Positions 40,494-61,100 of a stretch of DNA of 64,000 nt are shown here, piece after piece. A program made the translations under genes and the position numbers. The notes below the pieces were generated by a model that was given only the letters and a program-made list of their open reading frames with translations, was not told where the DNA came from and made no database searches. Source of the DNA: Verrucomicrobiota bacterium (GTDB lineage Bacteria; Verrucomicrobiota; Verrucomicrobiia; Methylacidiphilales; JBCCWR01); the NCBI GenBank assembly GCA_039192515.1, contig JBCCXA010000009.1, positions 925 to 64,924 of the forward strand, given 5' to 3'. Each line of letters opens with the position of its first letter. The stretch's first letter is position 1.

Positions 40494-41153
40494 TTAAATC
40501 CGCTTGGTGTCATAGCTTGTGAATGTTAGTTGATGTTCCTTCGCCCAAAGGATTAAATTTTCTACGGCATCTGGTAGCCAAGATTTGTCAATAGAGACAC
40601 TGTGACAGTTTTCATGCAACACTATGGCGCCGCCTTTGTTTTTTAGAAGTCTCTTTTTGATTTGATCCATTTTCTGTTTGCCAGATGCCGGGTCGGACCA
40701 AGCTTCGCTGATAAAGAAAGTTAGGTAGGCAGTGTCTAAAGATAACTCTTTTAATAAGTGTTTCACTGCCGGAGTGACTATTCCCCATGGAGGGCGGAAA
40801 AGTTTTGGAGACTTGTTATGAGCTTTCGTTATTGTTTTAAATAATTTCTGTGTTTTATCTGTTTCGTGTAAGAGGCGTTTTTTAGACAGAAGGGGCCAGG
40901 GAGTATGCGAATAGGTGTGATAAGCAACGGAATGGTTTTCATCGATAGCTCTTTTAACAATCGCAGGATGTTTTTTTATATTTCTTCCAATGTAGCAGAA
41001 AGTTGCAGGTATCTGGTGGCTTTTAAGCACATCGAGCAGTTGATTCGATATGCTTATATTTGGATTTGGACCATCATCAAAAGTCAAAATGATTTTGCCT
41101 TCTCCAGCTGGCCAATGCTTTGGTTCTAAAATGGTTGAAAGCATGCAGCTCAA
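40494..41153 (-). CDS. Polysaccharide deacetylase (NodB/CE4)
   Basis: LTFDDGP, HTYSH, LFRPPWG, IVLHE. Confidence 0.88.
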   Translation of the reverse strand: MSCMLSTILEPKHWPAGEGKIILTFDDGPNPNISISNQLLDVLKSHQIPATFCYIGRNIKKHPAIVKRAIDENHSVAYHTYSHTPWPLLSKKRLLHETDKTQKLFKTITKAHNKSPKLFRPPWGIVTPAVKHLLKELSLDTAYLTFFISEAWSDPASGKQKMDQIKKRLLKNKGGAIVLHENCHSVSIDKSWLPDAVENLILWAKEHQLTFTSYDTKRI

Positions 41154-41194: not shown

Positions 41195-42592
41195 CTAAAC
41201 CCTGTAAGTAAGATCCTTGTAAGTAGTGAGTGGCCACTGCTCTGGTGATTGGCAAATATCTTGTAGTAAAATGAGTAGCCAAGAGCAATCTTGGTATTGA
41301 TGCATGCCAGTTTTAATGAGCTTTAGAAGTTTATTTGTCTCTTTGTTTATAATTGTACTTTTACAAGAGCAGAGCCAAGCCAGTAGGCCTTTAGCATCTA
41401 GGCTAAATTCGTTAAGCTCTGCCTTGTCTTTAGCAATCTTGGAGTTAGATAAAAGCCATTCAATTTGGTGGCTATTGTCAAGGGGTAGGATAGAAAGCTG
41501 CTCACCTTTTCTTTCTTTTGCAAATAAAAGAACAGAGAGAGATATTGGATCCCAGTCATTGAGATCTGTTTGTTTTGAGGTGTTTTGTTCCAGGAAAAAA
41601 TGAGCGAGCCATAACCATGACGTAGCGAATGCTTGGTATAACTCAGGCTGGCAATAAACGCCAACCTCAATGGTATTTTCAAGATCCTTTAGCACCTGCT
41701 TGGAAAATCTTTTGAGCTCGATCCAGTTTTCTTGTTTCATGTAATACTGGCAAAGGTAAAAGGATGCTGAGATGTAGTGAGGGTAAGCCTTAAGGATTTC
41801 TTGTGCGCTACGAAGTCCCATCTCGTATTTATTCTGTTGTGAAAAATAAACTAAAAAATTTCCAAAATCTTGTCTCCAGTAATTATTTAACAGGCGCTCT
41901 TCAGTGGAGTAAGTTTGGTTAATGAGCTGGAAACGTTGTTCAAACTCTTTGTTTTCACCAGTGATAAGGAGATAAGACATAAGCTGGCAAAGGCGAGACA
42001 AATCAGGCTTATCTCCTTTGACAAGAGGTCGTAGACGCTTGAGCATTCGTTCCCCTTTTTCTTGGCGCAATTTGGCGTCCCACATGTATCCATAGTGAAT
42101 CATCTTTCCATTTAAATGGACCATGCCTTGTCTTTGGTTTAGCTGTGGGTGAACCTCTCCTTCAAATCGTAAATCATCAAAACGCCGGAAAACTCGTGTC
42201 GTTCGCACAGTGTTAGATGTGCCTTGTGGCATCTTGTTCTCTTCTAGAAATGTTATGGCATTAATACTGTTGTCTTGGTTTATATTACGAAGTTTGTTAA
42301 TCAACTCTACTTGTAGCCCGGAGGAAAGTTCCTGGTCAGCATCCAAAACCAAAACCCAGCTCCCGGTGGCGATTTTGAGAGACTCATTACGTGCGGCAGC
42401 CTCATCTCCATTCCAGGCAAAGAAACCCGTTTTAGCCTGATAACTCTCAGCAATTTCTAGTGTTTTATCAGTGGAGCCTGTGTCGATAATCACGATCTCC
42501 TGCGCAATTTCTTTGACGCTATCCAAGCAGCGAGGAAGATTCTTTTCCTCATCTTTAACGATCATAACAACACTAAGCAATAGATTTGACAT
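41195..42592 (-). CDS. GT2 glycosyltransferase with helical (TPR-like) C-terminus
   Basis: LSVVMIVKDEEKNLPRCLDSV, DTGSTD, AARNESL, LVLDADQ, FEGEVHPQL, HYGY. Start placed at ATG 42592. Confidence 0.88.
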   Translation of the reverse strand: MSNLLLSVVMIVKDEEKNLPRCLDSVKEIAQEIVIIDTGSTDKTLEIAESYQAKTGFFAWNGDEAAARNESLKIATGSWVLVLDADQELSSGLQVELINKLRNINQDNSINAITFLEENKMPQGTSNTVRTTRVFRRFDDLRFEGEVHPQLNQRQGMVHLNGKMIHYGYMWDAKLRQEKGERMLKRLRPLVKGDKPDLSRLCQLMSYLLITGENKEFEQRFQLINQTYSTEERLLNNYWRQDFGNFLVYFSQQNKYEMGLRSAQEILKAYPHYISASFYLCQYYMKQENWIELKRFSKQVLKDLENTIEVGVYCQPELYQAFATSWLWLAHFFLEQNTSKQTDLNDWDPISLSVLLFAKERKGEQLSILPLDNSHQIEWLLSNSKIAKDKAELNEFSLDAKGLLAWLCSCKSTIINKETNKLLKLIKTGMHQYQDCSWLLILLQDICQSPEQWPLTTYKDLTYRV

Positions 42593-42630
42593 AGTATTTT
42601 GAGCGCTGTGTCGCTCTACCAAGATGGTGC

Positions 42631-44544
42631 TTAACTAGAAGAAATAAAGATGTTATATCTTTCCAGTAAAGTGCCAGCAGTCTCAAAGAGTCTGATATAG
42701 GCCTTGTTGAGATCAACAGTTGCTGCTAGCTCCCGAACTTTAGCTTTATGAAGATCACGTCTAAACTTAAAAAGAGTATTTTCAGTGGTGAGACCTTTTT
42801 CAAGGCGTATTTCTTCCTCTTCATAGGAACGTTGAGCATTGGCATGAAAGAGTTGCATGGCCTCAAGGCGTTCTCGGTTAGATTCTATGATGGCAATAAG
42901 TTGTTGAAAGGCCAATGAGGTTTGTAGTTCGAGATTTTTTAGTTCTAGTATACTTTGTCTCTTTCGGTGTTGTGCTTCGTGCTTGCGACCAATGGCTTCG
43001 TCATTGCCGAGGGGAATGGAGAAGACCGCTCCGACGGACCATTCGGAGCCTTGACCTCCGAAAGATCGCGTGTAGCTACCCCCAATGCTAGGAGACAAGC
43101 CATTTATTCCGTAGGTGCCTTTAAGATCGAGTTGAGGCCAGACCTGGTTCTCGGCAAAAACGAGTCTGATATCTTCTCGCTCAACTTTTCGTTTAGCGAT
43201 TTTATATGCGGGGCTCGAGCTGAAGGCCTCGGCAACCAGATTGTTATAATCTAGATCAATATGGGGGATGATAAGCTTAGTTGTTGGAATAAAGACTGAA
43301 GTTCTATTAGGTGTGGGGTGGTTAGTCGTGAGAATTTGAAGTTCGGTCTGTTTGGCAAAGACTTCATTACGAGCTAGGACTAGTTCTTCAATGACTTCGG
43401 CAAGAGTTGCTTCTGCTTTATTGAGGTCGCCGGGGGAAACAAGCCCTTTTTCGAGTAGTTCCCTTTTTTCTTTGGCTAACTCAGAGGCTAGATCTTGCTC
43501 AAGCTCCTTGAGCTTTAAATTTCTCACGTGATACATGAGATCAAAGTAGGCTTTTAAGGTTTCGCTAACTGTTTCGAGCATAGCTGCTTCTAGCTCGAGC
43601 CTAGAGATCAATTTGTTTTTTCTAGCAACACGGATTTCTGCGAGGTTTACATCTGTTCCAAAATTACGGAGTAGCGGCTGGGTAAGTGTCATCCCGGTAA
43701 AGGTGCTATATTCTGGGCTAAATAAAGAAAGAGCGCTTTGCTGGGGACCTGACTCAATCAAGGTATTTCTTAGAATGTCTTGTTTAGTAAAGAGATCATA
43801 TTCAGTGCCCGTAGGGAGTTTGCCCTCTAACGATAGTTCATAGCTCCAGTTTTCTTCAGTGAAAATACGAGGATCGCTACTTAGAATAACTGCATTACCA
43901 CCACTACTAATAAATTCCTCGGTATTTTGAGGAGTACGTATCTTTTCATACTGTCCTTCAAAGGAGAGCTCGGGGTTAAATCCCCCAATCTGTTGTCGAA
44001 GAACATCTTGGGCGATGGAGATATCCAGTTTCTTCACTTCAACATCTAAGTTTTTTGTTAGAGATGAAGAAATAGCAGATGGCAAGTCCAGTGTAATTTC
44101 TGGCAGAGCTTCTAAAGTTGGGATTTTGTATTCATCTTCCGAGGAACTAGATGAGCCGTAGTATGTCGGCAAAGAATTCGGAGGCACGGAATCTGACTCT
44201 GGGATATCAGGTGGTGAGCCTGTAGGGGATTCGTTCAGTTCGGTTGTTTCTGTGGTTAGAGTTGGCTCTGTATTAGAACTGACAGCATCCAGGCCATCCG
44301 GCTCAAAAGGGTCGTCGTCCGAGCTAGTAGTGGTCGTTGTTGTTGAACTACTGGTGCTAGCAATCAAGCTTCCTGCAAGAAGCGCATGTTTCTTGGCTAG
44401 TGGAGACTCGAGTTTAGCAACCTGAGTAGAAGAGGATTTAGAGCAACCGACAACAACAACAGCAAAAATGAAGCTAGAGAGCAAAACATATATGCTCGTT
44501 ATCTTTAGTTTATTTTTATTTCCAAGCATGACATTTTTTAACAA
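42631..44544 (-). CDS. TolC-family outer membrane channel with long Ser/Thr/Pro-rich N-terminal extension
   Basis: TLTQPLLRNFG, AENQVWPQLDL, WSVGAVFSIPLG and heptad helices. Lipobox-like VVVVGC followed by a low-complexity linker. Confidence 0.88.
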   Translation of the reverse strand: MLKNVMLGNKNKLKITSIYVLLSSFIFAVVVVGCSKSSSTQVAKLESPLAKKHALLAGSLIASTSSSTTTTTTSSDDDPFEPDGLDAVSSNTEPTLTTETTELNESPTGSPPDIPESDSVPPNSLPTYYGSSSSSEDEYKIPTLEALPEITLDLPSAISSSLTKNLDVEVKKLDISIAQDVLRQQIGGFNPELSFEGQYEKIRTPQNTEEFISSGGNAVILSSDPRIFTEENWSYELSLEGKLPTGTEYDLFTKQDILRNTLIESGPQQSALSLFSPEYSTFTGMTLTQPLLRNFGTDVNLAEIRVARKNKLISRLELEAAMLETVSETLKAYFDLMYHVRNLKLKELEQDLASELAKEKRELLEKGLVSPGDLNKAEATLAEVIEELVLARNEVFAKQTELQILTTNHPTPNRTSVFIPTTKLIIPHIDLDYNNLVAEAFSSSPAYKIAKRKVEREDIRLVFAENQVWPQLDLKGTYGINGLSPSIGGSYTRSFGGQGSEWSVGAVFSIPLGNDEAIGRKHEAQHRKRQSILELKNLELQTSLAFQQLIAIIESNRERLEAMQLFHANAQRSYEEEEIRLEKGLTTENTLFKFRRDLHKAKVRELAATVDLNKAYIRLFETAGTLLERYNIFISSS

Positions 44545-44596: not shown

Positions 44597-46573
44597 CTAG
44601 ACCGCAGAAGATTTCCCGGAAAAGGATAGGTTTTCGTCTAACCAGGTGTCATGTTTCAGAACACGCTTTCTTGTCTTAAAAGCCATGCTTGAGGCCATCC
44701 ACTGAGCCCATGCGAATAAATGAATAATCCAACTGGGCAAAGGTTTAGGTAAGGTTCCACCCACAGCTTTTAAGAGAGAAAGTGGTAAAAACCGTAGGGT
44801 TAATTCGTCGTTAATAGATACAATAAACCGGGCGCTCCCAGGATCTCCTTGTCGGCCTGATCTACCAATGAGTTGTCTATCAATGCGAGATGACTCATGG
44901 ATCTCAGTAGCAATGACGTGAAGTCCTCCTAATTCTCTCACTCCGTGTCCGAGCTTTATATCTGTGCCACGTCCAGCCATGTTTGTGGCAATGGTTATCC
45001 GGCCAAGTTGTCCGGCTTTAGAGATAATTTGAGCTTCGTCTTCCTGCCGGAGGGCATTGAGGATTTCGAATTGTAACCCCATCTTACTGAGATGTTTGGC
45101 CACCAACTCGCTGCTTTGAACAGACCGTGTGCCGATTAGGAGGGGGCGATCCTTTTGATGCAATTTTTTTGCCTCGCAAGCAACAGCTTTCCATTTGTCG
45201 TTCTGAGAGGCAAAAATTTGGTCAGGGTATCTTTTGCGTAATGCAGGGCGGTGTGTAGGAATTTTTAGGACTGCTAGATGGTAGATTTGCCAGAGTTCTT
45301 CCTTGGATTCATATGCGGTTCCAGATAGACCCGAGAGGTTTGGATAACAACGAAAAAATCTTTGAAAGCTCATAGAAGCTATAGATTCATTAGGAGGTGT
45401 GATTTCTACGTTTTCTTTAGCTTCCACCGCTTGGTGCAATCCTTGTTGCCACGTGCGATGCTCCATAATCCGACCAGTGAATTCATCTATGAGTTCTATT
45501 TTTCCCTCGTTTATGGCATAATGAACATCTTTTAGATAAAATTCTCTTGCAATTAAAGCGGTACGAATGAGGTCGTGGAAGCGCTCCCTGTTTCGCCAAG
45601 CAGCAGGGAGAATCGAAGCTTTGCTAAAGAGTCGATCATTAATTTGAGATACGATACTGATTTCTCGGAACTTGAAATCAACCTGATAGTCTTGACCACG
45701 TTTTAGGGGTGCAATCAGCTTTTTAGCGTGAATACTGGCTGATTCGAGATCTTTATTCCTGACGCGTTGTGAAATAATAAGTGGTGTCACGGCTTCGTCA
45801 ATGAGGACGCTATCTGCTTCATCCACAATGGCAAAATGTAAACCACGCATGACTACACTTTGATGGCGGTTTTGTCTTTTTGCCAGATTACGAATCAGGC
45901 GGCGAGTGGGGTCATAGGGAGTACTTAAGGCTATACGATCTCTTAAAAAATCAGCTAAAGCTTCTTTTGGTGTAGTGTAGGTGATATGTGCTGCATAGGA
46001 TTTCTCGCGCTCATTAGCAGGCATGTGACCAGTGACGGATCCAACCGATAAGCCGAAAAAACGGAATAAAGCCTCCATCTCTTGACTGTCGCGTGAGGCT
46101 AAGTAATCGTTGGCTGTAATGACATGGCAAGGTCTACCTGTGCTTCCCATGAGAGTAGCAGCTAGTGCGACAGTAAGTGTTTTCCCCTCTCCGGTGGCCA
46201 TTTCAGCTAAATATCCATGGAATAGGCTGGCCGCACTAGCAAGTTGAACCGGGTAAGGACTTAGTTGTAGTGCTCGCTTTGCTCCGAGAACTAGCATAGC
46301 AAGACCTTCTGCTACGGCTTTATCTGTGGCAGGGAATTTGAGGAAATGAAGGCGCAGGTTTTTTAAACGGGATACAACCTCTTTGTCTGTAATGGACTCA
46401 TTTCGCTCAGCTATATGCTGAGCTTTCTTAGCTAATTCTAAAAAGTATTTTAGTGAACTTTTGCGGCGCTTGTATTTACCATGGAGTGAAAAAATAAAGG
46501 CATCAAGGCCTTGATAGCTTTTGCATTTTTCACTTGCTTTGAGCCGCCAATAATCTAACTGGAAATTTGACAT
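44597..46573 (-). CDS. Truncated SecA-like DEAD ATPase (NBD1-PPXD-NBD2 only)
   Basis: EMATGEGKT, TANDYLASRD, IVDEADSVLIDEA, GLHQAVEAKE, ATNMAGRGTDI and RIDRQLIGRSGRQGDPG. The protein ends about 70 aa after NBD2, so it lacks the wing domain and two-helix finger. Confidence 0.88.
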   Translation of the reverse strand: MSNFQLDYWRLKASEKCKSYQGLDAFIFSLHGKYKRRKSSLKYFLELAKKAQHIAERNESITDKEVVSRLKNLRLHFLKFPATDKAVAEGLAMLVLGAKRALQLSPYPVQLASAASLFHGYLAEMATGEGKTLTVALAATLMGSTGRPCHVITANDYLASRDSQEMEALFRFFGLSVGSVTGHMPANEREKSYAAHITYTTPKEALADFLRDRIALSTPYDPTRRLIRNLAKRQNRHQSVVMRGLHFAIVDEADSVLIDEAVTPLIISQRVRNKDLESASIHAKKLIAPLKRGQDYQVDFKFREISIVSQINDRLFSKASILPAAWRNRERFHDLIRTALIAREFYLKDVHYAINEGKIELIDEFTGRIMEHRTWQQGLHQAVEAKENVEITPPNESIASMSFQRFFRCYPNLSGLSGTAYESKEELWQIYHLAVLKIPTHRPALRKRYPDQIFASQNDKWKAVACEAKKLHQKDRPLLIGTRSVQSSELVAKHLSKMGLQFEILNALRQEDEAQIISKAGQLGRITIATNMAGRGTDIKLGHGVRELGGLHVIATEIHESSRIDRQLIGRSGRQGDPGSARFIVSINDELTLRFLPLSLLKAVGGTLPKPLPSWIIHLFAWAQWMASSMAFKTRKRVLKHDTWLDENLSFSGKSSAV

Positions 46574-46584
46574 CGGAAGGGTAG

Positions 46585-48738
46585 TTACAACTTGAGTCTG
46601 TCTTGAAGAACTTGCCTGATCAATCTCCAGCCTTGTTTGAGTAATGGTTCGTAACCAATATGAAAGCGAATTTGTCCTCTACGGTGTTGGACAAAATAAA
46701 CATTTTCTTGATTCTCAAGCTCTGCATAAATCATAAAGAAAGGCTCTTTGCTTGTAACCCCCTGAGGATCTTCTTGTGAAACTTCGATTTCACCACCACC
46801 ACCCCAACCTAGAGCGGGTGAAGGCAATGCTTTCTGCTCTCCGGGAATTCGAATCATATTGAGCACTTCAATTTCTTTACCAGCTTGACCTATCAGTCGG
46901 ACTGAAGCACCGCGTATCGATTGAAAGAAAACATCCGCAGCTTGTGGTTGCTCTACGATAGCAACAAAGCGATAGCTAGTAGGTTTGAGGAAGACTCCGA
47001 TTGGGGTGCCCTTGTGAAACCAGGCGCCGATTTGCTGGTCTAATTCAGGGGCGGCCCAAACTCCGTCATAGGGAGCTGTTATATTGAGGCGTTCTTTTTC
47101 CTCCAGATAGAATTTTAGATTTTTCCGTGCGCTTTCCAGTTTAAGCTGGACGGGTTTGATGCGAACATTTTCTTTAAAGGCTAGATTTTGCAAGGTAGCC
47201 CTAGATGCGCGTATCTCGGCCTGAGCTTGTTCAATTTTCCAGTCTAGTGCTAAGTCGCTAAACACCATGAGCTTATCACCTGCCTCTACTTTGGTGCCTG
47301 GACGCGTATAAACTTGCTCTAAGCGACCAGAGGTAGGCGCAAATAGCCGAAGGAATTTATCAGCTTCTACCACCCCGTGTGCTCTGGCATGCAGTGGAAA
47401 GGGTATAATGGCCAATAGGGTGATCGTGCCTACGAGAATTGAAAAAACGATGGTCAGGGCTCGGTTTCTAGTAGCGTCTAAGCCCGGGTCTGTAAACAGA
47501 TAGTAAAAAAATTTGTACAAAGGCATAGCTAACCAAATAAATGAAGTGATAGCTGCTAAGACAATACCTAGCCCAAAGAATTGGTCAGCCACGATGAGAG
47601 CAATACTCGTTAATAGAAAAATACGATAAAGGCCTGCACTTATTCCATAGATAGCCAACCAAATGCTTTCCGAGTTAGATTGTGCAGCAGGGAGCATGTG
47701 ACGGCATTTAAAGATAAATTTTTCCAAAAGGTATTTCAATTGCTGGTTGGAGCGTTGAGACATATTAGGGATTTCGATAAGGTCTGAGAGAATGTAATAG
47801 CCATCAAAACGCAAAAGAGGATTTATGTTAAATAAAAAGGTAGTGATGGATGCGATGACCATCAAATTATAGGCCATGGCATTCATAGTGGTATCCGAGG
47901 TATTGGCCCAAATGATGACAGCAATAGCTGCGAGGAAGAATTCAAAGATCATTCCGGCGGCTGCGACGTAAATGCGATTCCATTTACTGCGAAAGCCCCA
48001 ACTTGTTGTAGCGTCGACATAGGGAATGGGTGTGAAGATTAGTAACATGACACCTAACGTGCGCACTTCTCCTCCTAAGACCCGGCATATCAAACCATGA
48101 CCGAGTTCATGCCAAAACTTTGCAATCACACCACAGAGATAGAGCAGGAAAAGGTTTCCAGGAGATAGAAGGCCCTCTGTTTGATCAAGCGCAGCGTCCC
48201 AGTTTTCAAAGAGTTCTTTAGCTCCTAGAAAAATAACAATGGACCAAAGGATCATTCCCCAACGATTTAAGAGAGGCCTGAAAAAGGGAAGCAGTGCATT
48301 AATAAATGGAGTAGGGTCACAAAGAGAAATTTTAATAAAGAGGAAATTAAGAAATTTGCTTCGTAACTCCTTATGTTCTGCTTTACGGCGTCTTTCTGAC
48401 ATAGCTGAGACATCAGGAGGAAAGTCGGAGTGAATGAGGTTACCCTGTGTCAATTGGGCAAGAAGTCGGACGACTTCTTGCTGTCCGGGCGTTTCATCAG
48501 GATAAATTTCTAAACATTCATTCCAGACTTCTTCGATTGTTCGTTCGATTCGTAGTCTAGCTACAAAATGGTAGCCAGCAGGAGAAAGACGGAAGAATTT
48601 ATTGCTAAATGGTTCGCTTAAAACATACCAAGGCACTCCTCTATAGCTTTGACGTTCAACTCGAACACTGGGATGTAGCTGCGCACTACGACTAGCAATA
48701 CGGTGCCAAGACTCACTGAATAATGAACTCCGATTCAT
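46585..48738 (-). CDS. M50 (site-2 protease) membrane protein fused to an HlyD-like adaptor; PqqD/RRE-like N-terminus
   Basis: HELGH and NINPLLRFDGYY motifs, several TMs, and a C-terminal barrel-sandwich (APTSGRLEQV...ITAPYDGVW). Confidence 0.85.
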   Translation of the reverse strand: MNRSSLFSESWHRIASRSAQLHPSVRVERQSYRGVPWYVLSEPFSNKFFRLSPAGYHFVARLRIERTIEEVWNECLEIYPDETPGQQEVVRLLAQLTQGNLIHSDFPPDVSAMSERRRKAEHKELRSKFLNFLFIKISLCDPTPFINALLPFFRPLLNRWGMILWSIVIFLGAKELFENWDAALDQTEGLLSPGNLFLLYLCGVIAKFWHELGHGLICRVLGGEVRTLGVMLLIFTPIPYVDATTSWGFRSKWNRIYVAAAGMIFEFFLAAIAVIIWANTSDTTMNAMAYNLMVIASITTFLFNINPLLRFDGYYILSDLIEIPNMSQRSNQQLKYLLEKFIFKCRHMLPAAQSNSESIWLAIYGISAGLYRIFLLTSIALIVADQFFGLGIVLAAITSFIWLAMPLYKFFYYLFTDPGLDATRNRALTIVFSILVGTITLLAIIPFPLHARAHGVVEADKFLRLFAPTSGRLEQVYTRPGTKVEAGDKLMVFSDLALDWKIEQAQAEIRASRATLQNLAFKENVRIKPVQLKLESARKNLKFYLEEKERLNITAPYDGVWAAPELDQQIGAWFHKGTPIGVFLKPTSYRFVAIVEQPQAADVFFQSIRGASVRLIGQAGKEIEVLNMIRIPGEQKALPSPALGWGGGGEIEVSQEDPQGVTSKEPFFMIYAELENQENVYFVQHRRGQIRFHIGYEPLLKQGWRLIRQVLQDRLKL

Positions 48739-48754
48739 ATTTTCTGATTGTATC

Positions 48755-50176
48755 CTAAAGCCACAATTTTAATCTTAAGAAATCAATAAGGCGATGGGTC
48801 ATCATGTAAAGGGGAGGCTTGGTGCCAGCATTGATTTTGACAATACCTGTCATGCCTGGGCGCCACCATTCATCCGGTGGACATTCGATGCTGCAGCGAA
48901 CATAAAAGACATTTTTTTTGTCGCGAGCAACTGCACTGGGCTCGATGAGTCTCACGGTGATGGGGTACTTGATTTCCGGGCGGCTCTTAAAAGCAATAGC
49001 TCCATCAGCTTTGACTAGGACTTCTTGAATATCCTCCTCTGGGATCATTGCTTGAGTATAAAGGTCTTCTAAACGGGCGATTTTCATAAGGACATCACCC
49101 TTTTCAACTGGAGCACCAATTTGTTCAGTAAGAGCTCCTTCGACGATGACACCGTCAAATGGGCTCACGATTTTTGAACGGCTTAATTTATAGCGGGTTT
49201 GTTTGAGTTCTGATTCAGACTGAGCTGCTTTAGCTGTGGCTATATGCATGTCACCAAGACTACTTTGACCAAGTGCGACTTGGGCTTCGCTTCGGTAGCG
49301 TTGCATAGTAGCCATGACTTCACTTTCTTGGAGTTTAAGTTCGCGAGTATCTAGGGCAATGAGTGGTTCCTCCTTTTTTACTTCCTTACCGGGAATGACA
49401 TGGACTTCTTTGATGTAGCCTTGGAAAGGAGCGGGTAGGTTGATGAGGGCATCCGTTTTTAAAATAAACTCTCCACTGACTTTGTAAGGCCATGGGTATA
49501 GGCATAAAAAAAGAAGCACGATTGTAACGAGTAGGCCCCCAAATTTCCACCATGTGTGTTCTGGTCCAAGAACGGTAGCCAACCAGCTGCGTGTTTTGTT
49601 CTCTCCGAGAAACCACCAACCTCTAGCGTATTTATGAAGTTCTTCGAGCCTTGGTGTAACTAGGTCACAAATTAACCGAAGTGCTTCTACTTCTGTTTCT
49701 TTAAACTGCGCGTTTTCTCTTTGCAAAGTGAGTGTACCAATGACTTGGGAATTTATTCTCAACGGCATTGACAGCATATTTGTTGCACCAAATTTTTGAT
49801 GAAAGTTTTGATGTTCTCGAGTGATGGTGAGTTCGTTGTCTTTAGTGGGCCAAACAACATTTTCATCTTGATCGGATGCTTCCAGCATTACCCGTTCGAG
49901 TTCTTGTGCGATCTCAGTTCTTTTTTCGATTTTATTTGAGTGACTTGTTGCTTTAAGTCTCATTTCATCGTCTTGCAAGCGGCCAATAGAAACACGTGTA
50001 CAACGAAAGTGAAAAACCAATTCATTGCAAAGAGAGAGTGCTGCGTGATCGTACCGACTACTTTGGTTGAGTAACGAGATCAGGTCCAGGGTGATCCATA
50101 GAGGTCCTTCTGGCATTTGATTATGCGTCTTAGAGGGCAATGAGGATGTTGTTTCAGACTCTATACTTTCTGACAT
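48755..50176 (-). CDS. GAF-domain / HlyD-family periplasmic adaptor fusion
   Basis: N-terminal GAF-like region (LSMPLRINSQVIGTLTLQR), one TM, then LPAPFQGYIKEVHV..G..V and IVSPFDGVIVEG. Confidence 0.85.
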   Translation of the reverse strand: MSESIESETTSSLPSKTHNQMPEGPLWITLDLISLLNQSSRYDHAALSLCNELVFHFRCTRVSIGRLQDDEMRLKATSHSNKIEKRTEIAQELERVMLEASDQDENVVWPTKDNELTITREHQNFHQKFGATNMLSMPLRINSQVIGTLTLQRENAQFKETEVEALRLICDLVTPRLEELHKYARGWWFLGENKTRSWLATVLGPEHTWWKFGGLLVTIVLLFLCLYPWPYKVSGEFILKTDALINLPAPFQGYIKEVHVIPGKEVKKEEPLIALDTRELKLQESEVMATMQRYRSEAQVALGQSSLGDMHIATAKAAQSESELKQTRYKLSRSKIVSPFDGVIVEGALTEQIGAPVEKGDVLMKIARLEDLYTQAMIPEEDIQEVLVKADGAIAFKSRPEIKYPITVRLIEPSAVARDKKNVFYVRCSIECPPDEWWRPGMTGIVKINAGTKPPLYMMTHRLIDFLRLKLWL

Positions 50177-50283: not shown

Positions 50284-51039
50284 ATGTTCATGCGATGGAA
50301 TTTGATATGGTTGATCAGCTTCTTTGGGGTAGTGGAGACACAAGCGCAGAAGTCAGATTTTAAAAATAGCTTAGGTATGTTGTTTGTGACAGTTCCGAAC
50401 ACAGAAGTTTATTTCTCTGTCTATGAAACAAGCGTAAAAGATTATCAGGTTTTTGTAAAAGAAACGAAGCGCACAGTTAAAAAGCCTTCTTTTAAGCAGA
50501 ATGGGAATCATGCAGCAGTCAATGTCAGCTGGGAGGATGCGAAAGCTTTCTGTTACTGGCTAACGGCAAAGGAGAGAAAAGAGAAAATTATCTCAGCTAA
50601 ACAGTATTATCGATTACCCAACGATAAGGAATGGAGCTTAGCTTCTGGGATTAAGGGTGCAGCAGATGAATTCTCTTTCGAAGATAATTTAGATTTTGAA
50701 TATCCTTGGGGAAAAGAATGGCCACCGCCCCCAGATGCTGGAAATTACAGCCCTGATTTGTTTGTAGATAACTACTCCCATACCTCTCCGGTAGGCAGTT
50801 TTAAGCCTAACAAACTTGGTATTTATGATCTTGGAGGCAATGTTTGGGAGTGGTGTGAAGATATTTTTAATCAATCTCCAGATTATCGAATTCTTCGAGG
50901 GGCCTCCTGGCGTATGCGTTTGCCAAATGACCTTCTCTTGACCAATAAAATCGGTAACCGTCCGGACCTTAGGCTTTCCGTGTATGGCTTCCGAATTGTT
51001 TTGACGAAAGATAAAAAAGAAGAAGACGCACTTCAGTAG
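50284..51039 (+). CDS. Exported FGE-sulfatase (SUMF1/EgtB/PvdO) domain protein
   Basis: VNVSWEDAKAFCYWL, YRLPNDKEW, YPWG, PVGSFKPNKLGIYDLGGNVWEW, GFRIVL. Confidence 0.88.
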   Translation: MFMRWNLIWLISFFGVVETQAQKSDFKNSLGMLFVTVPNTEVYFSVYETSVKDYQVFVKETKRTVKKPSFKQNGNHAAVNVSWEDAKAFCYWLTAKERKEKIISAKQYYRLPNDKEWSLASGIKGAADEFSFEDNLDFEYPWGKEWPPPPDAGNYSPDLFVDNYSHTSPVGSFKPNKLGIYDLGGNVWEWCEDIFNQSPDYRILRGASWRMRLPNDLLLTNKIGNRPDLRLSVYGFRIVLTKDKKEEDALQ

Positions 51040-51043
51040 GTTG

Positions 51044-51838
51044 CTAACTGGCAGCACCCACTTTTTTAGCATATCCTTGAACACTTGCTAGCAGCGTAGC
51101 AAGAAAGCCTGCAATGGTAACTAAGGAGCCAATCATTTCGCCTTTGTTCAATTCTAATTGATCACCTTCTTTAAATTGGCGAGTGTGGTCGGACATTTTG
51201 CGAGTTAGGCCGAGGATGGGCTCTCCGGAATCTGATTTAGCAGGCGTTTGCGACAAAGTAATCGTTCTAATTTTAAAGATATATTTGCCATCTTGGCAGA
51301 TCTCTTTTGTTGCTTTTCCTTCAAACATAATCATGCCTCTAGAAAAATCCATTAGGCTAAGAATTTGTTCTTGGAGCTCAGAAGATGCTGAGTATTTATC
51401 TTTCAAAAACTTGAATTTATCTGGGACTGGAAGATTCATAAACTCTTGACGGTCTTTGCCAGTGATTTTTTGGATTTCAGTGGCGTCGTTTTTGCCAGCA
51501 GATTTGTAATCACATAGGGCTAGCACAGTTCTGCAATCCTCTAATAGTGGCACAATGGTCGACAAAGCCTCTGTGATAAGATTTCGAGTAAGCCAATCTT
51601 GAGAAGCATTTTTTGCTGCCTCAAAGGAGCGTCTTTCTTTTTGTTGGGGTTGAACAGGAAATTGATTGGTAACACTATCGTAATCCTCTTCACTAACTTT
51701 GCGATATCCCGCGAGGTTCACCATCGCGATATCGAAAAGACGTTGATAAACATTTAGGTAACGATCTGCGATCTCGTTTAAACTAATCTTTTGTCCTGTA
51801 GGAGCTTCTTTTGTTTGGTTAGGCATGTTTGACATCAT
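51044..51838 (-). CDS. Hypothetical protein
   Basis: 264-aa ORF with normal composition and no recognised motif. Confidence 0.7.
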   Translation of the reverse strand: MMSNMPNQTKEAPTGQKISLNEIADRYLNVYQRLFDIAMVNLAGYRKVSEEDYDSVTNQFPVQPQQKERRSFEAAKNASQDWLTRNLITEALSTIVPLLEDCRTVLALCDYKSAGKNDATEIQKITGKDRQEFMNLPVPDKFKFLKDKYSASSELQEQILSLMDFSRGMIMFEGKATKEICQDGKYIFKIRTITLSQTPAKSDSGEPILGLTRKMSDHTRQFKEGDQLELNKGEMIGSLVTIAGFLATLLASVQGYAKKVGAAS

Positions 51839-52139: not shown

Positions 52140-55100
52140 ATGGCTAAGACAAAAACTAAAAATCGGAATCGCTGGAAACAACCCCGAAAGCACAAGAAAA
52201 TCCCAAGGCATCTGCAATATGATTTGCAAACATTAGAGCCGAGGCTTTTATTTTCTGCCGCCTTGTATGATCCTGGAGATGGCGGCGGTTCTGGGGATAG
52301 TGATGTCGCAACGAATATAGAAACGCAGTTAACGGATACTTTTACTTTTCTCGGCAAGTATGCAGACGAGATAGGAACCGAAGAGGCAGCAGATTCCTCA
52401 GCAGTTCCTTTTTTCCAATCAAGCGTTGAGGATTTATTAGGTTTTGAGATTGAAGACTTTTTAAAGGGTGGGTCAGGTAGTGATGCATATAGCCAAGTAG
52501 TTGATGACTACTTTGACAATGCGAGTCCGGATTCCACAGGCCTTGCTGCTGACCTACAGAGCGCAGTGCAGAACACCTTTGGAGTTGGATCTGTTACGGA
52601 TACAGGCTCGGACAATGATAATCTGATATTAAATTTCTCTATCGATCTGAATGAAGTTACAAAGGACCTAAAATTTGGCACCGAAGCTCAGGAGTTTTTC
52701 TTAGAATATGGAGCAGGTGCCCAAGTAAAGTTTAATGCGGATGCCATAACGTTCTCTATTAAAGCTGATTTAAGTGGAGTGGATAATGTGGCAACAGATG
52801 AAACAGATAACTCCTCTAACGATAGCCTTTATTCAGTCGAGTTTGGTGGCAGTGATAAAGACACGTTATCTATAATGGGTTCTTCGAGTCATACCAATAG
52901 TCTAGATCCCTTAACCGGATTTGGAGTTGGTTTTGGACTCATTGATGCTCGGGATGATGTAATGGACTCGGGTGGTTATGTTGCTAACACAGGCGGGACT
53001 TTCTCTTTTAATCTTCAACTTGATTTTATCTTGGAGAGTTCTTTGTCTGCTGATAGTAAGCTCAGTCTGGATGAGCTCAGAGCAATTGATACTGCTTCAT
53101 CATATGAAAGCATCTACAGAGTGGATACTCCAACCGGTGCGGGTGTTAATGAAGGTGAACTCTTTTTACCAATCCAAGTAGCTAACCCAGCAGGGGATGA
53201 GTTTATTAGCGGTATTGATGGTATCACCGGAGACTTTACCTTTACCGATAACGATCTTTTTGATAGCCGTTCACCCTTGGTTCAAGCAAGTGATCAGACA
53301 TTAGCTTCTTTTTCGAGGATGACTGCTGATGATCTTTTACAGTTTGTTAAAAACGCTACCTATCTCTTTGGTCAGAGTTCAGATCTAACAGAGATGCAAA
53401 ATTTTCTTCCATTACTTGATCTTAACCTGGGCCAAGCGTATGATTTCCTGGAGGCTTCAGAAAAAGCATTAGTTGATCCTTTAGTCATCATTGAGAATGT
53501 ATTACGCATCAAAGATGCGCCATCAACAAGTGGTGATCCACTTGATTACACGGGTAATAGTAGCTTTCAAATTTATGTCTTTTACCAAGGTGTCTTAGAA
53601 GGTGGTGCCTTGCAAATCATTACTCTCAATGCGAATAGCTCCCGTGCTTCACTGCAAGATGTTGCCGATGACTTAAATATTGCGCTCGCTGCCGCTGCCG
53701 CAGGGACCCAAAGAGTCTTCGCACGGGTAACCGAAACCGCTTCTCCTCGGCTAGAGTTGTATGGTGTAGATGCGGATACGACCTTCTTCATTAGTAGTGT
53801 GAATCCAAGTGGAGAAACATTAGATCTTGGTATTGATCCTTATGGACTGGTCTTTGCTCGAAACAATGGAACGATCTCGAGCAATCAAAATGAGAAATAT
53901 CAGCTACAAGAAGTTAAGGTAGAGTCTTCCACCGCCATAGAGGTAAGTCATTTTACAACACTAAAGACTTTTACTGTAGCAATTGGCTCTGACAGCGCGA
54001 CCACCATTACTTTGCCTCCAAGTGTTTATGGCTCTATGGCAGATTTTGTATTTGCCTTACAATCGGCTTTAGCGGAGGCTGGCGTCTACGATGCGAGCAC
54101 GGGCGAGGGAATTGAGGTGGATGAAGCTACTTCCGGGGATAGTCAGGGCTTCGGGGTAACTTTTTCTATTAGTGGTTCTCGTTCAGGGGAAACACTAACG
54201 CTTGGGGGTAGTGATGTGGGGATTTTCCAGTTAAGTGCGACAAGTGGAGCGAGCTCCTATACCTCGGCAACTCCTGTAGAACTCTCTCCTTTTGAGTCGG
54301 GGTTATCTCTGACTATTTCATTCAGCTCTCAGCAGGCTGGGCTATTGGCGACAACTACAGAGACTATTTCGATTCCCGCAGGAAAATATGCGTCCGTCGA
54401 TGATGTGATTTTTGCTATTCGCGAAGCTCTTCAAAGCAATGGTCTTTATGATGCTTTTACGAATACGGGGATATTGATTGAGAAGATTCCTGTGGGTGGT
54501 GGCGAAGGTATACGTTTTTATACCTCGGCAGAGGTTTATGAGCTAACCATTTCTACCTCTAGTAATAGCCTCATAGGATTATCCAGTACGAGTGAAAGCG
54601 CTACGGCGGCTTACATTGATATTGATGTGAAGCAAGATGGCAATGCATCCGCAACGACTACTCGAGTTTACATCAATGGCAACACAACGACAGATCTTTT
54701 AGGAAATTCCACCAACACCTCTGTTTCAGACTTTGTTAGTGATGTGCAAAGTGCTTTGACTCGAGCAGGTTTAAGGGACTCTCTTTCTGGAACTGGAGTG
54801 GATATTCGCTCCTTTGACCAGAATGGGAGTTCAACTGATTATTTAGAATTCTTTGCATTAAATCCAGGTGCCGGTTCTGGCTTTATCCAAGAAATTTCGA
54901 CTGGAGCTTCTGCTTCATTTGGTATGGATGACTATAACTTAGATGGATTGGCTGCCCAAGTAATGGCTTTATCTGCCGAGGATCAAAAACCTCGGTTTAG
55001 TAATGTGCAAGAATTTGTCGCGCTCCTTAATCAATCTACGGGATTACCACAGGTCAGTGTGGACCTTAATGGCTCCGCTGATGGTGTGGAGATCAGCCGT

Positions 55101-58100
55101 TGGTCTGCAAATACGACCAGTGTTGAGGTTACAGGTGGAACCGGGAAAGGTTTTCTCAATTTAGATGCGGATTTAGTAGATAATGCTAACACAGAAATCA
55201 CTTCATCCAGTGCTGTAGATCTAAGTAACTTTACGGTCGATACGACCTTATTCGTTTCTGTAAATGGGGCTGCTGCAGTGACAGCTACCATTAAAGGAGA
55301 TACATATAATTCTATGGCTGATTTAGTGGACGCTATATCCATAGCGCTACGTGAAGCAGGGTTGGCAGATGGTCTTCTTTCCTCCCCTGCAGTCTATAAT
55401 GGCGGGGACATTGTCAATGGGGTCTCTCCTTATTTCACCTTTCCCATCCACCTCTACGTAGACGAATACTTTGGGGATGAAGGGTTGGCAGATCTCACTG
55501 ATGTCGATATGCGATTTGAGTCCAGCTATGGAGAAACAGCGACGGGGCAGATAAGTAATCTATCAGCCGAAAAACAAGTCACGGTATCCCGCTCCTCAGA
55601 AATTAGTTTTGATTTGGGCCTCAATTTAATTCAGCCGAAAACAAGCAGTGAGGAGCTTGTCGTAGAACTACCCGTTATCATTCAAGACTGGGATGGGCAG
55701 CTTGATTCGTACGATGCTCTCTTTAAGGTGATACTTGACGATGGTGTGGTACACGACGTTCTCGTTTTAGCGAGTGATACGGCTCTTAACACAAGCACAG
55801 AAGACTTTGTTGCGAATATTAATGCCGCACTGAGTGCAGTTGATATCGGTGGTGGAGTTATGCTTAGCTCGCTGGTAGTAGCTTCTTTGGACATGGTCAA
55901 CGACTTTGAACGAGATGTGATTCGCTTCACAACCGTGGCGGGGTCAAGTCGTAGCTTAGCAGTCGAAGTTCCTGAATACATTTCAGAAGATACGACCTAT
56001 AATAATGATGCTGCCGTTAAGTTAGGTTTTACGACGAATGTTTCAACAGGTAATCTCGATGATTTTGATGTATTAGCGGGTGCTACGCAGATCGATGCTT
56101 CAGGAGTTCTTCCCAACAATCCGGATTATGATGTCTACTACCGCGTTAAGCTAGAGGACTCAGTTACGGGGGCAACAGATGCTTTTGTCTTTTCAACTAA
56201 GGCTACTGACACTTCGGGTAATACGAACCTAGCCCAGTTGATTGTTGACATAAACAATGCCCACAGCTCTGTAGATTTTGAGGCATTTGATAATGGAGGA
56301 AACTTAGGGTTCCAAATTCTTGGAGTAAATTACGATATTATTAGAGTTGATGTGGCTAAAAATCAATACTTGGCTACGGAAACAGACCCCATCATTGCCG
56401 ACAACCCCGTTGATGTAAGCGATTTTGTTCTAGCTACGGATGCATTTTTTGAGTTTATCCTACCTGATGGAACCAGTCAGATACTGACCATTGAAGTCGA
56501 GGACACAACAGATAACGCCAGTTTAGATGACTTGGTCAATGACCTCAATCAGGCGATCCAAGCAACTTCCGCCCTCATGGACAATGGGGTTTATCAAAAG
56601 ATTATCGCCTTCATTGAAGGCGTTGGGGGTAATAATCATTTAGCTTTCCGTTTAGATACGACAAATGTCTATCCCTCTGGTGGTGATTGGCGTATGACGG
56701 TCATTGCTCAATACAACGAGTCTGTTACGAATGCTGCAAGCTTTGAGCTGGCAATGGCGGAAGAGACTTATCGTGACACAAGGTATGCATTGATCGGACC
56801 TATTATTGGAAGCTTAGCTGATGCAGACAGTATTTTGGTTAATGATTTTCTATTGGATATTTCAATTAATGGCTCAGATTATGAAACAGTTACGGTTTTG
56901 GCCTCTGACACCTCGGCAAATACCAGCATTGGAGATCTCATTGCAGACATCAATACTTCCCTGGCTAATACTTCAATTACCGTGGCGGGCAATAGCTACA
57001 CGGTTAGCCAATTCATTGATGCTATTGCTTTGAGTGGAGGAGATGTAGTCCAGCTTGCAGTTAGGGATGATGCACCTGTGCCTTTGCTTAATGTTCGTTT
57101 TGATCCAACTACTGATTCTAACAATGGCTATATAGATTTAGGCTTTTCTTCAGAAGAGTCACAGATAGGTATCCGCGGTTCTGATGCCACTCTCGATAAT
57201 ATTTTCTTAACTGGCCGAGCGGAAGTTAGAGATGCAGACGTAAGTGGAAAAGGTTCCCTAGGTTTTGCAGATTTCAGCTTTGATCATACCGATTTTGATG
57301 CCATTACCGAAACAACTCTAGGACTCACTGGCAATATGACAAGTATGCTGGATTTAATGAGATACCTAGGGTCTTATGAAGCTGAGTATAGCGCAGTAGA
57401 GATAGATCATAGCCTAACCATTGAAGACGATACTTTTGCAAGAGTAGAGTTTCAGGATCTGGCTTTCTTGGAAGATAGTGTTACGGAAAATACTCTAACT
57501 GGCCTAACCTTTGATCCAACAAGCACGATAGTGCTTGCCTATCAACCTAATGGGAATGGGGCCTCTTCGAGCATAGGAGTAGGTGGCTCGGATTTATTCA
57601 AACTTCCTGAAGCTGACCTTTCTTTTAATAACACAAATGACATCGAGTTAATCAGTCGGCTGACTTTTGATGACATTGCGCTTTCTCTCTGGCATGTAGG
57701 GGATTTCATCAGTGACTGGATGAATAATGATCCTAATGGGCCATTTGCAGCTAATCTCTTTTTTGCCAAGACGGGAATCGTTGATGTTCAAGATTTTGGG
57801 GAAGAATTCAGCGCCATCATGGCGCAACTATGGGCTAATCCTCCTGAAAATTTACAGGAGGTACAGCGCGCTCTAGAGTCTGGACTAAACTTAGATGCGG
57901 GGGATGTGACGGTTGAACTGGTGACATCTGGAAGCGGTTCCACTTTCAATGCGAGTTTACGTGTGGCATTCGACTTCATCACGACCTTTGCCTCAACGCT
58001 TCCCCTTTACATTGATCTGGCAATGTTATCGGATCGCAGCTCTAACTCTGGCTTAGTCAAGCAGAGTTTACTAGGTCTCTCTTCATTATCGAGTAGTTTG

Positions 58101-61100
58101 TCTGATCCCATGGAAGTGGAGTTGGAGGGACTCTCTAAGCTCCAACTAGATATGGATCTTGTGCTAGTAGAGAACGGAGAAGTTATAGAACCAAAGGCTA
58201 TCCTGAATCAACCAAATTCAGGTGAGTTTTTTGAAACGAAATTTTTTGTAACTGGAGATTCGTACACAGGAGACCTTCCTGCCGGAGCTAACCGACTTAG
58301 ACTTGGTTACAGCTGGTTTGATGAGACAGGACGTGAAGTTCTAGCCCCTGACACAGGAACAGCCCCTGTTGGTGCAACTGTTGCGACGACAGGCGAGCTC
58401 GCAGCTACTTATGATGATGCAACAGATAGACTTACTTCTACGAGTGTCGGAGCCCTTGTCGTAGATGGAATCACGCTTACAGAACAAGGAAGCGACGGAG
58501 CACCTGGTGATTATGTCCTTGTAAAGGACCAAAGTGATCCTACGCAAAATGGTCTTTATGAAGTGATCGAATCTGGTGATGGCGCAACCGCTTGGATACT
58601 AGAACGCACTGATAGTGATTTGTCCTGGCTCAAGGTCAGTGTGAATTCAGGGTCTATCTTTGGGGACCGCATCTTCATGGTGAAAGATATTTCTAATGTT
58701 GATGTTGTTGCTGCTGCCACGACCTCTGTAGGAAATTCTTACAATCTTCAGTCATATCCTTTCCTCAATTATATTGATGCAGGTTCTAGCTTAACCATTG
58801 ATGGAGTGACCCCTGAGCATGGGGACTTTGTTTTACTTACAGGACAGCAATTGGGATCAACGGGTGCTCCTAATGGAGTTTATCAGGTTCAGATCAATTC
58901 AGGTACTTATGAGCTGTATCTTATGGACATTGGCCAAGGGACTATTGGGCAAGCGGATGTCACGGGTGGCTCTCTTGCCGGGAATTCTTATTTTGTCGAT
59001 TTCAATAATATTACAAACAACATTCAGCAGCGCGGTGTTGCAGAATTGACACCTTACAACGTTGTAGAGCTTCGCTCAGCTGCTGTAGCCGTGAGCGAAG
59101 GTGGAGAGGTGGCTTTACCAGATGTGAATGGCACACCGCAAATTTATGATACTGACGAAACGACTCTGGATGAAAATGATATTCCTGCAGCAGACTTTAC
59201 AGTTGAAGTTTCTACAACTGAGGAAGTCGCTGGTACATTTAGCGGCGGCACCATCACTTTGAATGTATTGTCCGCCCCAGTAATAGATGGTGTGACTTTA
59301 GCTGCAGGTGATTTGGTCATGGTGAATCATCAAGGGGATGGCTCTCAGAACGGTATTTACCAATTAACTGAATCCAGCGGAATTTGGACTTTAACTCGTG
59401 TGAGTACTTATGATGATTTATCAGATACCCTTAATGTAAAGGTCACGGTTGCTAGTGGGACGACATATGGCGGTTTCGAATTTAAAATGGCGGAGACAAT
59501 CTCTGAATTTAATGCCTCAATTGTTCGTTTTTCTAAGTTGATAAAGCCTGCTTCCTTTATCATCAACTTATCTGATTTTAATGGGACGAAAGATAAACAG
59601 CTCCCTTATCATGCGGTAGCCGCTTCTACATCAGATCTTTTGGTGAGTGCCGATGGCAGTTCGACTGCTTCTTTTGATTTATCAACGGGAACCATAACAG
59701 CAGACCAAAATGGCTCACTCAATCGCTACGTCACTCAAGTTTGGGACGAACAGACGGGGCAAGTGATTAATATTATCGGTATTGATGGGGTGACTAATTT
59801 ACGAGTGGGAGATCGAGTTTTGTTGAAGGATATTGGTCGAACCGAGCTCAATCCCTCAGGAGCTAGTTATGGTTCCTACACCGGTGATTATCGAAATGGT
59901 ATTTACGAGGTGGTATCTTTGGGAGGCAGCACCTCCCAATGGGAGTTAAAGCGCGTTGATTTTGCCGACGAGGCCTCTGAATTTGACCAGTTGAAGATTG
60001 GGGTTCAGCGTGGTAGCTACAATTTAGATACGCGTTATATTCAAACACTTTTTAATCCTCTCAGCTTAGGTGCAGGAACGAATATTGGATTCACGGATGA
60101 TATTGCTTTTGTTTATGGGAACTACGATAGTAACGGCAACTTAGTTGGTAGTTGGGTTGATTTTTCTGCTGACGGAAATGCGGCCGCCGCACTTCCCTTG
60201 AGTGTTGTCATGGTTCCATCTGGTGGCGGAGAGACGGTGATTACCAAAAACCTGGCTAGCCTAACTGATGATGAAAAAGAGGCACTAGGTCAACTTGGTG
60301 AAGCTATTCTGGAAGATGATCTTTATCTTGCGGCACCAGATCTAGATGCGTTGAAAATCTTTGTTGCAGATGATACCGATGCGTCTGACGATGGATTTGC
60401 TGGTTCTGGCCTGGAGAAATTTTTCGATACTTCAGATATAGCGGTGACTTTTGATCCACTACCGGATTTATTTCGCACGGTACCTCCCTCGGACGTACTT
60501 TCATTAGTTCGAGATTGGGTTTTTATGGGGGATGCATTAGATCTCGCCTTGTTTAATCTTCAATTTGCCATGGATCAGGCGCTAGGTATTGAGGTGCCTT
60601 TGCTCGGAACCAGTCTGCCTAGTTATACCGGCTTTATCGAGGAGTTTCGAGACGATTTAACAACCCGAGTACGTGAGAATTTGCGCCTAGACACTTTAAA
60701 GCCTGCCAATGCTATCCGCGATGCTCTCTACGCCGCACTTGGACCTAATGGTCTGGGGTATCTCACAGATATCACCGATATTGTGGTAATGGCAGGCGAT
60801 ACGGTTTGGGATATTGATAATACTTCGGATACGACTTTTTATGGGACAACGGCTGAAGGGCTCTTGTTTGAGAAGGTGAGTCAGAGTTCACTAGAGTTTT
60901 CCTTTAGCATTAGTAAGTCTTTGGATACTGATGCAACAGCAGTGGCGATTGACTCCATAGAAAGTGGAGATCAAAGTATCGGGCTGTCTATATCCAATAG
61001 CACGGTTTCTCAAAACAGTGACGGGGTGGTGACATCGACTACGGGCGGTGTTCAGCTCAAACGTTCGTTTGAGCTTAATTTTGGTTTCGGTATGGATATC

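Follow-up and report, generated by a model that had tools for sequence, protein, structure and literature searches.

The 64,000-nt window analysed here, from a genome of the phylum Verrucomicrobiota, carries a gene (46585-48738, minus strand; all positions count along the window) for a 717-aa protein in which three modules are fused. Comparisons of sequence and predicted structure show a collinear arrangement of a predicted cytoplasmic PqqD-type recognition element for leaders of peptides made by ribosomes and modified after translation (RiPPs), a site-2 protease core of the M50 family with intact catalytic motifs, and a predicted periplasmic adaptor. We further show that the presence of this fusion protein tracks that of LEPR-XLL proteins across phyla, both by synteny and by co-occurrence. 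From sequence and models we consider it probable that the fusion is the substrate-selecting, leader-processing inner-membrane subunit of an ABC-free exporter driven by a SecA-like ATPase and linked to TolC, with the 5,812-aa LEPR-XLL protein encoded in the window as its cargo. Binding and cleavage of the leader by the fusion protein are what we infer from the same sequences and models.

Architecture of the fusion protein

The gene and its parts are:

46585-48738, minus strand: fusion of a RiPP-recognition element (RRE), an M50 site-2 protease and a HlyD-type adaptor, 717 aa, ATG start (open reading frame, Pfam and NCBIfam matches, AlphaFold model)
48427-48687, minus strand: PqqD-like RRE, residues 18-104, predicted cytoplasmic (Pfam PqqD in the family, model, Foldseek)
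47407-48264, minus strand: M50 protease membrane core, residues 159-444, predicted seven helices, the HExxH helix being followed by a beta-hairpin (228-241) (model, hydropathy, loop charges, NCBIfam)
48097-48111, minus strand: HELGH zinc-binding motif, residues 210-214, within helix 193-220 (sequence and alignment)
47800-47829, minus strand: NINPLLRFDG, the second M50 motif, residues 304-313 (sequence and alignment)
46588-47406, minus strand: predicted periplasmic adaptor (membrane-fusion protein), residues 445-717, with a short alpha-hairpin at 496-549 (Pfam HlyD_3, Foldseek)

The protein belongs to a large and rigidly conserved family. Homologues of about 718 aa number more than 4,400, and identity ranges from 43 to 64% among the best 120 listed. 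An alignment of 74 homologues from many phyla was used for residue invariance and for AlphaFold modelling of the N-domain. H210, E211, H214, N304, P307 and D312, the last presumably the third zinc ligand from what is known of the family, were unchanged in 74 of 74 homologues. Because the catalytic residues are invariant throughout this alignment, the M50 motifs are real and under selection rather than products of chance. An earlier sequence-only reading of this DNA had reported the zinc motifs HELGH and NxxPxxxFDG, and both were found intact at residues 210-214 and 304-313. Pfam Peptidase_M50 (PF02163) matched with 27.9 bits against a cut-off of 27.2; by sequence the protein is an M50/site-2 protease, for which proteolytic activity is predicted.

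Two curated protease families also matched the protein. The NCBIfam model daptide_HExxH (NF041824) aligned with residues 22-405 over profile positions 4-364 of 379 (E 1.4e-46, 159 bits, under the 300-bit equivalog cut-off), and residues 198-331 matched the YydH/LiaK epipeptide maturation protease (NF058609, E 1.1e-9). The NCBIfam scan of the 717-aa protein gave no match to families of RseP or SpoIVFB type. Among curated families, its nearest relatives are thus RiPP leader peptidases. Hydropathy and loop charges gave a seven-helix, N-in, C-out topology that obeys the positive-inside rule, and both zinc motifs are predicted at the cytoplasmic ends of their respective helices. From these loop charges and motif positions we predict that RRE and zinc site share the cytoplasmic face of the membrane and that the adaptor lies in the periplasm.

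An AlphaFold model of the full-length protein reached a pLDDT of 84.6, and a model of residues 1-122, built with the 74-sequence alignment, a pLDDT of 83. The N-domain model has strands at 26-32, 35-42 and 47-51 followed by helices at 53-59, 68-78 and 86-98; the modelled fold is a winged helix of the PqqD/RRE type, with the same three-strand, three-helix order that the sequence-only reading had proposed. When the N-terminal ~120 residues of the 74 family members were scanned separately, 57 matched Pfam PqqD (best E 4.6e-9). In the window's protein the match covers residues 39-102 when the full 717 aa are scanned (E 0.0084, profile 3-67 of 67), and the isolated N-domain scores E 5.2e-4 and 20.7 bits over the same profile positions (PF05402, Pfam cut-off 23.4); the sequence match to PqqD is thus clear for the family and borderline for this copy. 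A Foldseek search of the PDB with the N-domain model placed complexes of the lasso-peptide RRE TbiB1 with leader peptides at ranks 1-3 (probability 1.00, template-modelling score 0.67-0.70, target-normalised). The family matches and these structures agree with the earlier assignment of the domain as PqqD/RRE. TglHI and the sactipeptide enzyme CteB, which we take to be RRE-containing RiPP enzymes, were also among the Foldseek matches. In RRE complexes, leaders bind beside strand 3 and helix 3. The near-invariant residues of the family include R50 in strand 3 and Q86, L93, Q95 and L96 in helix 3, and by analogy this cluster would coincide with the leader-binding face of RREs.

The C-terminal part, already read as an adaptor from the letters of the sequence, matched HlyD_3 above the cut-off (22.9 against 22.2 bits). 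Foldseek matched the last ~270 aa of the model to MacA, AcrA, MexA and ZneB (E 5e-13 to 1e-9 over ~270-300 columns, best probability 1.00). The module is modelled as lipoyl, hairpin and barrel, with hairpin helices at 496-520 and 528-549. By sequence and model it is a HlyD-type adaptor, with lipoyl domain, alpha-hairpin and beta-barrel following a membrane anchor.

The layout of the first two modules has a precedent. In daptide clusters an RRE is fused N-terminally to a site-2 protease, which removes the leader in an RRE-dependent manner (bioRxiv 10.1101/2023.03.08.531785). The daptide MpaP family (NF041824) and the window's protein share the collinear RRE and M50 core. They differ in that the latter has a C-terminal periplasmic adaptor and no daptide tailoring genes nearby; daptide cargo is a ~40-aa peptide handled by ABC transporters, as opposed to a 5,812-aa candidate cargo with a SecA-like ATPase and TolC. 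Identity as a daptide peptidase was ruled out, the score being under the cut-off and the operon lacking aminotransferase, dehydrogenase, methyltransferase and short precursor genes. By sequence the fusion protein is homologous to the daptide protease and shares its RRE-protease layout but falls outside that family.

Conserved gene order and co-occurrence with LEPR-XLL proteins

The genes flanking the fusion gene in the window, and the proposed cargo, are:

48755-50176, minus strand: GAF-HlyD protein, 473 aa, with a cytoplasmic GAF domain, one transmembrane helix and a HlyD-type adaptor (Pfam)
44597-46573, minus strand: truncated SecA-like ATPase, 658 aa, with nucleotide-binding domain 1, preprotein cross-linking domain and nucleotide-binding domain 2 (Pfam, NCBIfam)
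42631-44544, minus strand: TolC-like outer-membrane factor, 637 aa, with an N-terminal linker rich in Ser and Thr (Pfam OEP E 3e-39, TIGR01844)
52140-64000, plus strand: giant LEPR-XLL protein, 5,812 aa, proposed cargo, continuing past the window end (open reading frame; full length from the genome, L093:1-17436)
52140-52253, plus strand: basic N-terminal leader of the giant protein, ending Y-D-L-Q-T-L-E-P-R-L-L-F, with LEPR at residues 32-35 (sequence, NF012209)

The GAF-HlyD stop codon lies 16 nt before the start of the fusion gene, and the SecA-like ATPase is without scaffold, wing or C-terminal domains. The giant gene lies 3.4 kb from the fusion gene and is the sole such open reading frame (ORF) in the genome (3.7 Mb in 107 contigs, 96% complete), which holds one cassette and one LEPR giant; the canonical SecA is separate, on another contig.

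A set of 80 related loci was collected with the alignment as query, since a single-protein query found no relatives. These loci come from Verrucomicrobiota, Desulfobacterota, Lentisphaerae, Kiritimatiellae, Phycisphaerae, Spirochaetota, Beta- and Gammaproteobacteria, Magnetococcales, Chlorobi, Fibrobacter, Elusimicrobia, Nitrospirota and Anaerolineales. The order GAF-HlyD, RRE/M50/HlyD fusion, SecA-like ATPase is kept in nearly all of them, and a TolC-like gene is present in most, usually a few kb off. Of the 80, ~15 have a giant LEPR-type ORF whose start is 70-400 nt beyond the SecA-like gene, and two further loci have one upstream. The giants beside the cassette each carry the leader [FY]x[LIVF]Ex[LM]E[PQA]R[ILV][LM]LS[AG][DT], for example FELEALEPRVLLSAD. 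A short third adaptor, which stands between tolC and the GAF gene in the locus viewed in detail (L001:7141-8004), is present in 48 of the 80 loci. The conserved cassette of one related locus examined in detail contained no ABC or C39 domain.

Among 151 genomes of the window's phylum a full-length orthologue was found in 11 (bitscores 868-1,122), all 11 of which had LEPR-XLL, and neither feature was found in the other 140 (Fisher p = 6e-17); the 11 comprise 10 genomes with LEPR-8K matches plus the window's own, whose leader passes only when scanned alone. The carriers are scattered over eight families, with sister genera lacking both features. Orthologue-bearing genomes from other phyla had LEPR-8K matches in 22 of 25 cases, mostly on ORFs of 1,000-14,000 aa, and control genomes in 0 of 14. 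For 151 Desulfobacterota genomes the counts were four with the orthologue, four with LEPR and two with both (p = 0.003). The orthologue-only pair lies on contigs of 8-9 kb and the LEPR-only pair consists of ORFs cut by contig ends; the Desulfobacterota pattern is imperfect but compatible with fragmentary assemblies. A Phycisphaeraceae chromosome (genome G152, locus L068) had 15 LEPR-8K matches, many on ORFs of 400-2,700 aa, and the leader is therefore not restricted to giant proteins.

A paralogous family forms a second tier at 300-430 bits in ~30 genomes, and keeps an RRE-like start, HEFGH and NPLLKFDGYY. Its cassettes have a GAF-adaptor and a short adaptor and lack a SecA-like gene, and the genomes are without LEPR proteins. 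One such cassette (L094:6366-11348, genome G005) encodes a GAF-HlyD protein of 659 aa, a short HlyD protein of 260 aa and an RRE-like/M50/HlyD protein of 732 aa, the last 28% identical to the window's fusion protein.

Along its full length the giant protein has no Pfam domain at E <= 0.001. Its one NCBIfam match, to PueAB near residues 3,800-3,870 (E 2.9e-7), was dropped as a family assignment because 29 bits against a cut-off of 670 is too weak. The N-terminus, MAKTKTKNRNRWKQPRKHKKIPRHLQYDLQTLEPRLLFSA, matched NCBIfam LEPR-XLL (NF012209, LEPR-8K) with 18.4 bits against a cut-off of 17, a match detected solely on the isolated 70-aa N-terminus and missed in 1,000-aa pieces and in the whole-genome scan of its own genome. 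A canonical hydrophobic signal core is missing from the leader, and LEPR is followed by the short hydrophobic segment LLFSAAL. The window's leader is of the same kind as those described by the planctomycete motif (PF07595) and LEPR-XLL (NF012209), with the difference that scans of three leaders with Pfam PF07595 (Planc_extracel) gave nothing significant, the best result being E 0.25 on one of them. The motif RRLxxExLExRxLLA (Studholme et al. 2004; PF07595) is cited as a putative novel N-terminal export signal, and among the 10 longest proteins of Tuwongella 8 carry it (PMC8567305).

The LEPR leaders also resemble those of daptides. In daptides the leader motif is ELExMEAP, whose last residue stands at -1; the essential residues are L(-7) and M(-4), with contributions from E(-8), E(-3) and P(-1) (bioRxiv 10.1101/2023.03.08.531785). 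LEPR leaders read E-L-E-A-L-E-P-R, and taking R as -1 gives daptide-like hydrophobic or acidic residues at -7, -6, -4 and -3; in this register the window's own leader reads D-L-Q-T-L-E-P-R. Taken as a lead, this likeness to daptides predicts cleavage at or just after LEPR.

Operon context and relation to known systems

Further genes beside the cassette are:

41195-42622, minus strand: glycosyltransferase of family 2 (GT2) with a helical tail, 475 aa, after tolC (Pfam/NCBIfam)
40494-41153, minus strand: deacetylase of carbohydrate esterase family 4 (CE4), 219 aa (Pfam/NCBIfam)
50284-51039, plus strand: FGE-sulfatase/PvdO-like gene, between the operon and the giant gene
51044-51838, minus strand: 264-aa ORF, upstream of the operon

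The best NCBIfam match of the GT2 protein was to SunS-family peptide S-glycosyltransferases, which have a RiPP flavour, at E 2e-14 and far under the cut-off. The GT2 and CE4 genes had no counterparts in the 80 related loci at E 1e-5; they may possibly serve cargo or envelope tailoring, and their operon membership is uncertain. Copies of the FGE-sulfatase/PvdO-like gene, 47-51% identical, occupy the same position in the two closest related loci (L020 and L027), and its kept position therefore suggests a conserved accessory role, perhaps in cargo modification. For the 264-aa ORF neither Pfam nor NCBIfam gave a match, and none of the 80 loci has a counterpart. The TolC-like protein has a likely lipobox (VVVVGCSK) and a low-complexity stretch of ~130 residues rich in Ser, Thr, Asp and Glu before the OEP repeats. 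Pfam and NCBIfam scans found no ABC, RND or MFS transporter among the operon genes.

The gene row itself is already in print. Kamneva, Poudel and Ward described in 2015 a row of secondary SecA_DEAD, Peptidase_M50/HlyD, GAF/HlyD and short HlyD/biotin-lipoyl genes, remarked on its type I secretion flavour, horizontal spread and lack of an ABC transporter, and called its biological role "completely unknown"; the words PqqD and LEPR are absent from their paper (PMC4452313). The window is a member of this locus, with three of the four genes present and adjacent, and differs in being without the fourth, the short HlyD/biotin-lipoyl adaptor. The fusion protein belongs to the Kamneva locus, to the M50 and membrane-fusion protein superfamilies and, by the matches of its family and its modelled fold, to the PqqD superfamily. 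The motif as a putative export signal has likewise been in print, since 2004. We found no paper that assigns export machinery or a peptidase to the LEPR-XLL/planctomycete leader, and none that describes the mechanism proposed here, links the gene row to LEPR cargo, identifies the N-domain as an RRE or connects the protein with the leader peptidases of daptides.

The sequence-only reading had called the fusion a functional analogue of a C39-ABC exporter. This holds as a comparison of how the two would work and fails as membership, since no C39 domain or ABC transporter is present. In its way of working the fusion protein most likely resembles the combined peptidase and adaptor of a peptidase-containing ABC transporter (PCAT) system. 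In PCAT-type type I secretion (colicin V, CvaAB-TolC) the proposed likeness is an N-terminal leader removed on the cytoplasmic side by a built-in protease, with an adaptor and TolC forming the duct. The window differs in having no C39 cysteine protease or ABC transporter; a zinc intramembrane enzyme is fused to the adaptor instead of to the motor, the motor is SecA-like, and the proposed cargo is thousands of residues long. Giant-adhesin type I secretion (LapA/LapBCE, SiiE) shares a giant, acidic and probably surface-located cargo and a duct of adaptor and TolC-like protein; their signal is C-terminal and they rely on an ABC transporter, whereas here the signal is N-terminal and the cassette has no ABC gene. 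A classic type I secretion system was ruled out for these two reasons, and because no operon gene has an ABC or C39 domain the system is neither type I nor PCAT. Also set aside was the Omnitrophota giant-gene arrangement, in which SecA_DEAD lies inside giant proteins and the neighbours are of type II secretion, unlike the cassette. A regulatory RseP-type protease was rejected as an identity for the fusion, with no such family match and no sigma/anti-sigma context.

Proposed mechanism and alternative explanations

The sequence-only reading had proposed that the N-domain binds the LEPRxLL leader and the M50 site cleaves it, and each part of that reading open to computation came out as foreseen, which supports it. 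We hypothesize that the RRE, in the cytoplasm, binds the acidic-hydrophobic part of the leader, [FY]x[LIV]Ex[LM]E[PQ]R, by taking it up as an extra beta-strand. On the same side as the RRE, within the cytoplasmic leaflet, the zinc site would then cut the leader at or just after LEPR, a position proposed by register with daptide leaders, which are cleaved straight after ELExMEAP. The two adaptors and the TolC-like channel would form a duct, into which the SecA-like ATPase would thread the very acidic chain in unfolded form. For the inner-membrane pore, an oligomer of the M50 membrane domain would be the only candidate encoded in the operon.

Several observations weigh against this reading. The window's own PqqD score lies under the Pfam cut-off (20.7 against 23.4 bits), and a sequence profile of the N-domain found no PDB sequence even at E 10, so that fold comparison was needed to find RREs. 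The daptide model score of 159 bits is far under the 300-bit equivalog cut-off, and the N-terminal 110 aa scanned alone gave no match to that model; most of the homology to daptide peptidases therefore lies in the M50 core. The likeness between daptide and LEPR leaders is based on the motif as printed in the paper rather than on an alignment. Two of the four Desulfobacterota genomes with the orthologue have no LEPR match, and two LEPR genomes are without the orthologue. No inner-membrane channel protein is evident, and the short third adaptor has no clear orthologue in the window's genome (best 21% identity, E 7e-5); the window's cassette may run on two adaptors.

It is unlikely, in our judgement, that the M50 domain serves mainly as a pore or scaffold, with the PqqD-like domain docking another subunit, such as the SecA-like motor or the GAF domain, in place of the cargo leader and the leader left uncut or cut by another enzyme. 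The operon encodes no other polytopic membrane protein, an M50 protein as pore has been suggested (PMC4452313), and the RRE assignment of the window's own protein falls under the Pfam cut-off. However, the invariance of the zinc and catalytic residues across phyla speaks for a protease that still cleaves, leader peptidases are the closest families, and RREs with solved complexes (TbiB1) bind peptides; moreover, pore and peptidase roles are not mutually exclusive. We think it quite improbable that the protease is an RseP-like clearing enzyme that acts after export has started, degrading leader remnants or jammed cargo instead of making the maturation cut. A dedicated RRE-protease fusion is a hallmark of primary RiPP leader peptidases, and no other protease is conserved in the cassette, even though RseP-type site-2 proteases are known as a family to act also as signal-peptide peptidases and the leader has the short hydrophobic LLFSAAL after LEPR.

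Nor do we give much weight to a cassette that handles other cargo, for instance a small peptide that escaped annotation or some component of the envelope, while LEPR-XLL proteins use general Sec and are linked to it only indirectly, for example through shared regulation or a shared surface structure. Such an arrangement, very unlikely in our view, would fit the absence of an adjacent LEPR gene from most non-verrucomicrobial loci, the imperfect co-occurrence in Desulfobacterota and the existence of a paralogous RRE-like/M50/HlyD family without LEPR proteins. It fits poorly with co-occurrence in 11 of 11 carriers against 0 of 140 other genomes and in 22 of 25 genomes across phyla, with a giant gene directly downstream in ~15 loci, with a LEPR leader that has no canonical hydrophobic signal core, and with a leader motif resembling one read by a related RRE-protease. 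Finally, site-2 proteolysis of an anti-sigma factor or of the GAF-adaptor might control expression or assembly of the exporter. Regulation is the classic role of M50 enzymes, from family knowledge, and a GAF sensory domain is encoded next door; with no sigma or anti-sigma gene in the conserved cassette, no RseP or SpoIVFB-type match, and the fusion of RRE and adaptor left unexplained, we regard this as highly improbable.

Leaders of the LEPR-XLL type mark hundreds of giant surface proteins (4,000-20,000 aa) in Planctomycetota, Verrucomicrobiota, Desulfobacterota, Proteobacteria and further phyla. If the fusion protein reads and cuts this leader, as we propose, the "secondary SecA" locus of 2015 would gain a function and an orphan sorting signal its machine, and RiPP-style leader recognition would have been co-opted for protein secretion. 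We put the chances at about even that the cassette is a distinct type of Gram-negative secretion system, in which a motor derived from SecA stands in for the ABC transporter, an RRE-guided intramembrane protease fused to an adaptor acts as receptor, leader peptidase and perhaps pore, and the LEPR-XLL/planctomycete motif is the address tag. Were this true, some of the largest proteins of bacteria would be sorted by a leader-recognition logic re-used from RiPPs, the pairing of an RRE with a site-2 protease seen in daptides. The association also provides a genomic rule for annotating giant proteins, by which the presence of the orthologue indicates the presence of LEPR cargo.

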